64,000 nt of DNA from Shigella phage sb4. Position 1 is the stretch's first letter. Each line of letters starts with the position of its first letter. Positions 46,530-48,794 of the stretch are shown here, one piece after another. The DNA lies in sequence record PQ666542; one strand, given 5' to 3'. Position numbers and translations under genes: made by a program. The notes beneath the pieces are model-generated. The model was given only the letters and a program-made list of their open reading frames with translations. It ran no database searches and was not told the origin of the DNA.

Positions 46530-48794
46530 TCATAATTTACAGGATGAACAATCTTCAGCTTTTGGAGTTTCTATTTCATAATCATCAGTACCAGAACCGT
46601 CACGGGTATTATGATAATAGAAATTTTTTCCGCCAAAATACCAAAAATACAAAAGGTCATCAATCATTATTGACATTGGAACCTTTCCTTTTGGAAAAAT
46701 CTGCGGGTCATAATATGTATTCGCTGAAGCTGATTGACATACCCATTTCAGCATAATAGCTACTTGCGTAAGATAAGGTTTATTACCTTTCTTAGCTAAT
46801 TTCCACGTATAATCATAGAGGTCTATGTTATGCTCAATATTGGGCACGACTTGATTGAATGAACCCTCTTTTGATTCTTTAACAGAGACTGGTCCGCGTG
46901 GAGGCTCGATACCGTTTGTACTGTTAGAAACTTGGGAAGATGACTCACATGGCATAAGTGCTGATAATGTGCTATTACGGATGCCAAAGAGCTTAAGGTC
47001 TTCCCGCAGCGACGACCAGTCACAAACGTATTTTGGAGCTGCGATTTGGTCAATCTTTTTATTGTACCAGTCGATAGGTAATTCGCCTCGAGACCAACGA
47101 GTGTCTGAAAAATATTCGCAAGTTCCTTTTTCTTTGGCGAGCTTAATAGATGCTTTAATAAGTCCATTCTGCAATCTCTCAAATAGTTCATGTGTTAAAT
47201 CGTTAGCGTCTTCATATGACGCAAAATTTCTTGCCAGCCAAGCTGCATAGTTAGTAACGCCTACGCCAAGGTTTCGACGTTTTTTAGCTTTTTCTGCTTC
47301 AGGAACTGGATATCCTTGGTAATCCAAAAGATTATCAAGAGCACGAACTTGGACTTCTGCCAATTCATTAATTTTATCTTGGTCTTGCCAATCGAAGTTA
47401 TCCAACACAAACGCAGATAACGTGCACAATCCAATTTCAGCATCAGGGCTATTCACATCATTTGTTGGAATAGCAATTTCACAACACAAGTTACTCTGAC
47501 GAATAGGTGCCTTTTCACGAATAAATGGAGTATAGTTATTCGTATTATCAATGAACTGCACATAAATCCTTGCTGTTCCTGAGCGTTCAGTCATGAGCAA
47601 TTCAAACAGTTCACGGGCTTTAATACGCTTTTTACGAATATTAGGGTCTTTTTCTGCAGCTTCGTATAATTCACGGAAACGGTCTTGGTCTTTAAAATAA
47701 GAATAATAAAGTTCGCCACCCATTTCATGTGGACTGAACAAAGTAATGTAATCATTCTTTCCGAATCGTTCCATCATTAGGTCATTCAGTTGAACGCCAT
47801 AATCCATATGACGGATACGGTTTTCTTCTACGCCTTTGTTATTTTTCAAAACGAGAAGATTTTCAACTTCCAAATGCCAAATAGGATAATAAGCAGTAGC
47901 AGCGCCGCCACGAATTCCGCCCTGTGAGCATGATTTAACAGCAGTTTGAAAATGTTTCCAAAAAGGAATAACACCAGTATGACGTACTTCACCTGTACCA
48001 ATCTTAGAGCCTTCGGCACGAATCATACCAACGTTAATGCCGATTCCAGCACGTTTGGAGATATATTCAACAATTGAAGCAGAAGCCTTATTGATAGACT
48101 TTAATGAATCACCTGCTTCAATAACAACGCATGAACTAAACTGCCGAGTTGGAGTACGGCAACCAGCCATAATAGGAGTTGGCAGTGAAATCTGTCGAGT
48201 AGATACTGCTTCATAAAAACGAATAACATGTTTTAATCTATCAACAGGTTCATCTTGATGCAATGCCATTCCAATAGTCATAAATGCAAACTGTGGAGTT
48301 TCATAAATTTGACCAGTGGTTTTATCTTTAACTAGATATTTTTATTTTAATTTCATCGCCCCAGAATAAGTAAATTCCATATACCGTTCGTGCTTAATTT
48401 TTTATTCTAAAAATTTAATTTATTCTGCTGAATATTTTTACAACAATTCAGGGTCATATTTACCTTCATTTACACAGTAAGAAATATGGTCAATAAATGA
48501 ACGTGGTTCATACTGTCCATAAACATGCTTACGAAGAGCGAACATTAAACAGCGTGCAGCTACATATTGATAATCAGGCTCTTCAACTGAAATAGAATTC
48601 GCAGTAGCCTTAATTACAATGGTTTGAATGTCATCAGTTGTCATTCCATCACGGAGATATGATTTAATATTTTCATATAATTCATAAGGATCTACAGATG
48701 TTCCTTCAGCTGCCCAAGATAAAACCTTAATAATTTTTTGCGGGTCAAAGCTCTGTGTAACACCACTACTTTTGATAACATTAATTTATTGCAT
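46530..48794 (-). pseudogene. nrdA: Ribonucleotide reductase large subunit NrdA homolog with five in-frame TAA codons (codon 3 at 48786-48788; 48438-48440; 48420-48422; 48402-48404; 48342-48344)
   Basis: 755 codons in one frame (T4 NrdA 754 aa). ATG-CAA-TAA is followed by [19 protein letters not shown]...; the 583-aa ORF carries the catalytic core. Confidence 0.9.

Follow-up and report, generated by a model that had tools for sequence, protein, structure and literature searches.

The 64,000-nucleotide stretch of DNA analyzed here (the window) is a segment of a Tequatrovirus (T4-like) genome that extends from gp14/gp15 to the genes of the long tail fibres and includes head and baseplate genes, alt, ligase, nrd, td, and gp32, and its best public relatives are 97–98% identical. 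The nrdA gene, encoding the alpha subunit of the class Ia ribonucleotide reductase, is located on the minus strand (46530–48794, 755 codons) and is interrupted by five TAA codons. The locus is organized as in T4-type phages (sb2, pSs-1, and B1.1), with the same gene order (denA-nrdB-nrdA-nrdA.1-td), the same nrdA length, start, and reading frame, and a nucleotide identity of 97–98%. Both td and nrdB are free of introns and no mobE-type ORF is found between nrdA and nrdB (region 45300–50212); in the relative B1.1, by contrast, td is split by a homing-endonuclease ORF. The neighboring nrdB gene (45300–46478) is an intact 392-amino-acid ORF, in agreement with an earlier note on this DNA that was made from the sequence alone.

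The minus-strand translation of nrdA starts with MQ*INV, and in-frame TAA codons are present at codons 3, 119, 125, 131, and 151. An alignment with the nrdA genes of sb2, B1.1, Ec_MI-02, and pSs-1 contained no gaps over 2265 nt, with an identical start and frame, so that the stops are indeed in frame. This confirms the ATG-CAA-TAA start that the earlier note had read and rules out a different start or frame for the gene, a possibility it had raised, based on four annotated orthologues. The identity to annotated orthologues in sb2 and other phages was 97.7% in the ungapped alignment. The first stop was created by TTA>TAA at codon 3, the others by TCA>TAA at codons 119 and 131 and by GAA>TAA at codons 125 (E125*) and 151, and three additional missense changes are present at codons 127 (ACA>AAA, T127K), 138 (GAT>TAT, D138Y), and 148 (CAA>AAA, Q148K). 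These stops and missense changes, which are all private transversions, set the window copy apart from T4-type nrdA. The missense changes are the T to K, D to Y, and Q to K replacements that had been noticed before, and the four further stops said to fall within the first 150 codons were also found, within 99 nt, except that the last of them is codon 151.

The Pfam domains of the sb2 NrdA orthologue are an ATP-cone (PF03477, residues 4–89), an all-alpha domain (PF00317, residues 139–216), and a barrel (PF02867, residues 220–728). The stop cluster was therefore misplaced when it was assigned to the ATP-cone region: codons 119–151 lie downstream of the ATP cone and reach the start of the all-alpha domain. 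The window copy aligns without gaps to an orthologue that contains all three domains, and what it lacks is an uninterrupted full-length reading frame. The longest residual ORF starts at an internal Met codon and encodes 583 amino acids (46530–48281, minus strand) without the ATP cone and without half or more of the all-alpha domain; with the cone and about half of that domain missing, a truncated functional NrdA was ruled out. The codon 3 stop (48786–48788, minus strand) is caused by an A>T change at 48787 that is found in no public record (best identity 97.8% over 181 nt). The same substitution changes the TAA stop codon of the overlapping nrdA.1 gene to AAA, and the nrdA.1 ORF (48692–49111, minus strand) is artificially lengthened from 108 to 139 codons as a consequence. 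In codon 13 of nrdA, two A:T>T:A changes relative to all references are only 2 nt apart (48756 and 48758, TCT>ACA, S13T), and such a double hit is odd for independent random errors.

The remaining four stops of nrdA, at codons 151, 131, 125, and 119, form a patch (48344–48439) together with Q148K, D138Y, and T127K. The patch consists of seven G:C>T:A changes (on the plus strand 48344 C>A, 48353 G>T, 48383 C>A, 48403 G>T, 48415 G>T, 48422 C>A, and 48439 G>T), which alter 7 out of 31 G/C sites within 96 nt. The complete patch is present in none of approximately 500 public relatives, the best identity being 95.6% (8 mismatches in 181 nt). When the window was first aligned to 42 kb of sb2, other patches of C>A and G>T changes were visible at once, and in total six patches of 65–156 nt that consist almost exclusively of G:C>T:A changes were identified, the nrdA cluster being one of them. 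The second alt paralogue contains nine such changes (30965–31120) that produce four GAA>TAA stops (codons 309, 315, 322, and 336), the pseT gene contains four C>A changes (41207–41278), and the junction between the Rz-like gene and alc contains ten G:C>T:A changes (43038–43140) with stops at codon 29 of the Rz-like gene and codon 167 of alc. Five changes are located in rnlA (44509–44573, stop at codon 100) and eight at the gp35/gp36 junction (60627–60778), where no stop is made.

The window contains 183 G:C>T:A changes, and when these were placed randomly on G/C sites in 2000 trials, the maximum per 110 nt was mostly three to four and the highest value, seven, was reached twice. The six patches, which change 13–37% of their G/C sites, are far beyond chance, and the earlier note was right to describe the nrdA lesions as densely clustered and not as one isolated change. 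Four of the six patches are located in locally AT-rich sequence, and G>T and C>A changes are interleaved on one strand inside the patches. The T[C>A]T context is enriched 2.4-fold and the CCG context is depleted (0.36-fold). Shearing-induced oxidation is associated with CCG>CAG changes, a context preference that was thus not seen here. A small hypothetical gene that shares only 89.9% identity with sb2 contains eight mixed transversions within 25 nt (52092–52116); their spectrum differs from that of the G:C>T:A patches, and this segment is probably a natural mosaic.

Projection of the pSs-1 RefSeq annotation onto the window, in which the genes are otherwise unchanged in length, identified 40 premature stops in 25 genes (e.g., at 934, 1722, 13247, 21013, 22390, 23116, 23463, 23488, 26234, 32824, and 32914). 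All of these stops are window-private substitutions and most are transversions. The affected genes include gp15, terS (small terminase, stop at codon 102, position 1722), gp24, gp26, gp27, gp28, gp48, and DNA ligase, all of which established T4 genetics counts among the essential genes, as well as uvsW, rnlA, rnlB, td, gp59, and dsbA. Two tandem alt (ADP-ribosyltransferase) paralogues are present at 27935–32044, as in sb2, pSs-1, and ECp13, and contain two and five premature stops, respectively. Lesions are thus not confined to dispensable genes, as would be expected for pseudogenes, but affect at least eight essential genes, and the sequence as written cannot represent a living phage. Within positions 26–64 kb, selection seemed to spare the late genes; this pattern vanished once the first 26 kb were included and was rejected because gp15, terS, gp24, gp26–28, and gp48 all carry stops.

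Private changes were defined relative to three references (sb2, pSs-1, and ECp13), and the mutation spectra were compared over the 48.6 kb common to all four genomes with each genome used as the focal genome in turn. The number of private transitions in the window (279) is within the range of the three relatives (239–293), whereas private G:C>T:A (129 vs. 21–48), A:T>T:A (95 vs. 32–36), and T:A>G:C (49 vs. 16–22) changes are in excess; private G:C>C:G changes are rare throughout (4 vs. 2–8). Overall, transversions are 2.5–4-fold more frequent than in the three close relatives while transitions are normal in number and mostly synonymous (68%), as expected for real divergence. The window therefore corresponds to a normal relative plus approximately 190 extra transversions per 48.6 kb (about 0.4% of sites). 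The natural transition to transversion ratio of the lineage is approximately 3:1 and the extra layer contains no transitions, so the nrdA lesions lack the natural mutation spectrum expected of a pseudogene. Along the window, the extra transversions differ two- to three-fold in density, with the lowest values in terL, the sheath and tube genes, and the major capsid protein gene; this variation and the AT-rich setting of the patches would fit a coverage-dependent error. Two private 1-nt deletions relative to all three references were also found, one in gp25 (20256) that shifts only the last four codons and one in pseT (41092) that scrambles approximately 25 C-terminal residues.

The extra transversions are blind to codon position, effect class, and gene essentiality, a random distribution that is expected of an artefact. 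Private G:C>T:A changes are distributed over codon positions 1, 2, and 3 at fractions of 0.43, 0.33, and 0.25 (expected 0.45, 0.33, and 0.23), and they result in 15% stop, 77% missense, and 8% synonymous changes (expected 12%, 79%, and 9%). Nonsense changes were observed 34 times compared with 29.4 ± 4.7 expected under a trinucleotide-matched null, and new out-of-frame stop trinucleotides occur at expected rates. Deliberate frame-aware knock-outs were considered as a source of the stops; the comparison of in-frame with out-of-frame stops and the matched null gave no convincing excess and thus no sign of frame-aware design.

The nrdA gene is annotated as intact in all of the more than 800 matching relatives with the exception of one assembly, Shigella phage sb1 (PQ666539.1), which is also the best public match, above all others, for the patch region around 43,000. 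In sb1, nrdA is annotated as two CDSs that are split at the same place as in the window, rnlA is likewise divided, and the Rz-like/alc region is in fragments. A 12-kb segment of this record (138277–150457) contains nine premature stops, one of them at codon 9 of gp32, and 73 private changes of the G:C>T:A type. The two sequences have seven exact G:C>T:A changes in common compared with approximately 0.8 expected by chance, among them four sites of the 43038–43140 patch and two in the nrdA patch, 48353 (Q148K) and 48422 (E125*). The sb1 assembly thus resembles the window in its G:C>T:A-rich layer, its fragmented genes, and these identical changes, but the majority of its errors affect sites that are unchanged in the window, its nrdA stops are restricted to codons 124 and 125, and it contains the gp32 stop, which is absent from the window.

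The sb1 record belongs to a project that describes four lake-water isolates, ADG1 (PQ666539), AKR2 (PQ666540), CRD3 (PQ666541), and TMC4 (PQ666542), which were sequenced on a NovaSeq 6000 from enzymatically fragmented and PCR-amplified libraries, assembled with SKESA, and annotated with Prokka (PMC11993411). More proteins were reported for ADG1 (285) and TMC4 (291) than for AKR2 (254) and CRD3 (255), and the G+C content is lower in ADG1 (35.16%) and TMC4 (35.35%) than in AKR2 (35.49%) and CRD3 (35.52%) (PMC11993411). Genes fragmented by stops and a load of G:C>T:A changes would shift the two values in these directions; the publication contains no mention of stop codons or pseudogenes (PMC11993411). 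Table 1 of the same study lists locus numbers for TMC4 that reproduce the gene fragmentation of the window in the same order: gp15 (192/193), terS (194/195), rnlB (207/208), uvsW (212/213), gp26 (219/220), gp27 (222/223), gp28 (224/225), gp48 (227/228), Alt-like (231–236), DNA ligase (238/239), pseT (260/261), rnlA (267–269), denA (270), nrdB (271), NrdA (272/273), td (276/277), frd (279), gp32 (284), and gp59 (285) (PMC11993411). The sole mismatch is gp24, which is listed once although the window gp24 contains a stop. On the basis of this gene table, the window very probably represents the TMC4 assembly. The same signature is present in a sibling from one project and absent from independent relatives, with approximately 500 records that do not contain the nrdA patch.

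Taken together, an extra layer of changes exists in the window that is transversion-only, blind to codon position and essentiality, and recurrent in a sibling assembly. The most probable reading (with a probability of about 0.88) is that the nrdA stops are errors in the deposited sequence and not mutations of a living phage, a reading that is inferred from consequences in the assembled sequence and not seen directly in reads. Genuine divergence would be overlaid by approximately 250 unselected transversions, mainly G>T/C>A, followed by A<->T and then A>C/T>G. These errors would be partly scattered, as at codon 3, and partly concentrated in patches of 65–156 nt that may correspond to the size of a read or fragment.

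The physical origin of the extra layer is a matter of inference, and two candidates may account for it. The first is a base-calling confusion. In the two-colour chemistry of the NovaSeq A is read in both colours, C in red, T in green, and G is dark, so that a spurious green signal in one read would turn G into T and C into A, the pair of changes that is interleaved in the patches. A bleed of green signal from a flanking T would fit the enrichment of the T[C>A]T context. The second candidate is template damage, in which 8-oxoG or apurinic sites were copied according to the A-rule and the resulting changes became fixed in a PCR library of low complexity. A low-complexity library of damaged template and a bleed of reads between libraries on one NovaSeq run are possible contributors. 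Single-strand 8-oxoG damage as the sole cause is disfavoured by the interleaving of G>T and C>A on one strand.

Raw Illumina errors are most frequently A>C, G>T, A>T, and C>A and most rarely C>G, a ranking that was explained by an incomplete separation of the G/T and A/C signals (PMC2532726), and the spectrum of the extra layer fits this ranking. In addition, C>A/G>T errors were described as a mark of sub-optimal sample handling (PMC6417284). Known Illumina error and damage artefacts are thus similar to the layer in the window in being dominated by transversions, with C>G rarest and C>A/G>T enriched, and the patches are of read or fragment size. They differ in that such artefacts normally have a low allele fraction and remain outside the consensus, whereas those in the window reached the assembly and some of the sites are found in two assemblies. 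Several points speak against an artefact: the A<->T excess is not predicted by a confusion of the G/T and A/C channels, exact sites common to two assemblies are unusual for random read errors, and at the depth of a NovaSeq run on a 165-kb genome read errors should normally be outvoted in the assembled consensus.

Two alternatives to sequence errors are improbable to a similar degree. One is a real, localized G:C>T:A hypermutation, in which A was inserted opposite clustered oxidized guanines or abasic sites and the resulting defective genomes dominated the sequenced DNA. The purity and density of the patches suggest such a process, the T[C>A]T enrichment resembles oxidative-damage spectra, the combination of G>T and A>T is the classical apurinic-site A-rule spectrum, and seven sites recur in a second assembly. 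However, genomes with nonsense changes in a large number of essential genes cannot dominate a plaque-purified lytic stock, two of the four siblings are clean although they were prepared in the same way, both strands are affected inside one patch, and no template copy or associated element was found for any patch. A templated mechanism similar to that of diversity-generating retroelements (DGR) was rejected, as the window contains no second copy of any patch and the altered sites are G/C and not A. A related and even less probable version is that the patches are real footprints of the bypass of clustered guanine damage or abasic sites on T-even DNA, for example after an insult in the host or the environment and copying by an A-rule polymerase. 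In that case a large part of the sequenced DNA would stem from defective genomes, and the sites common to sb1 and the window would be damage hot spots.

The other alternative is an in-silico alteration, by which substitutions were planted after download and no deposited record would match. Marker stretches of the window indeed had no match in the viral, metagenome, and genome contig collections, and look-ups of its exact proteins gave no hit. This is countered by the published TMC4 table, in which the same genes are split in the same order, by the public sb1 record with the same signature and seven identical changes, and by the absence of extra transitions, which randomly planted substitutions would include.

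A genuine nrdA pseudogene is slightly less probable again. According to this explanation, a viable phage lost the large subunit of the class Ia enzyme, uses the host enzyme instead, and its nrdA gene is decaying. The frame is truly broken in the sequence, E125* is present in a second record (sb1), and nrdA of T4 is dispensable on hosts that have their own reductase according to established T4 genetics. The same type of lesion is nevertheless found in eight or more essential genes, the changes consist of transversions only and real divergence in this lineage mostly of transitions, the rest of nrdA remains 97.7% identical to intact orthologues with no indels, and the lesions occur in no other of approximately 500 public relatives. 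Reassignment or suppression of stop codons, which would allow the many in-frame stops in otherwise well-conserved genes to be read through, can be dismissed, because three stop codons (TAA, TAG, and TGA) are found where relatives encode any of ten amino acids (K, E, S, L, C, G, W, Y, R, and Q), with no tRNA gene present in the window; in addition, stop-creating changes occur at the rate of random transversions and normal TAA, TAG, and TGA terminators end the genes.

With sequence errors as the preferred explanation, the phage almost certainly has an intact nrdA gene, and the lesions are a local sign of a poor-quality public assembly without biological significance. The biological reading implied by the earlier note, a disabled nrdA beside an intact nrdB, fails in view of 40 unselected stops in 25 genes and their recurrence in a sibling assembly; nrdB is intact by chance and not as a contrast to nrdA. 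Hundreds of unselected transversions are thus present in two or more public Tequatrovirus records of a single study, sb1/ADG1 and, very probably, TMC4. Such errors fragment genes and inflate gene counts, and they would introduce false pseudogenes, "novel small ORFs," and amino acid variants into comparative and machine-learning work. Any other finding in the window that depends on stop codons, missense changes, or short AT-rich patches is equally suspect, and the practical value of the analysis is a data-quality flag for the window, PQ666539, and PQ666542.

Two further observations concern other parts of the window. At approximately 8806, the small prohead-core gene (gp67) has lost 24 nt in frame relative to pSs-1 within its acidic GAT/GAA repeat, and this deletion is probably a natural length polymorphism. 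Finally, a 32-kb record named Staphylococcus phage SAJK-IND (MG010123.1) matches the first 25 kb of the window (1–25000) over their full length with 97% identity, which looks like a mislabelled or contaminated public record.
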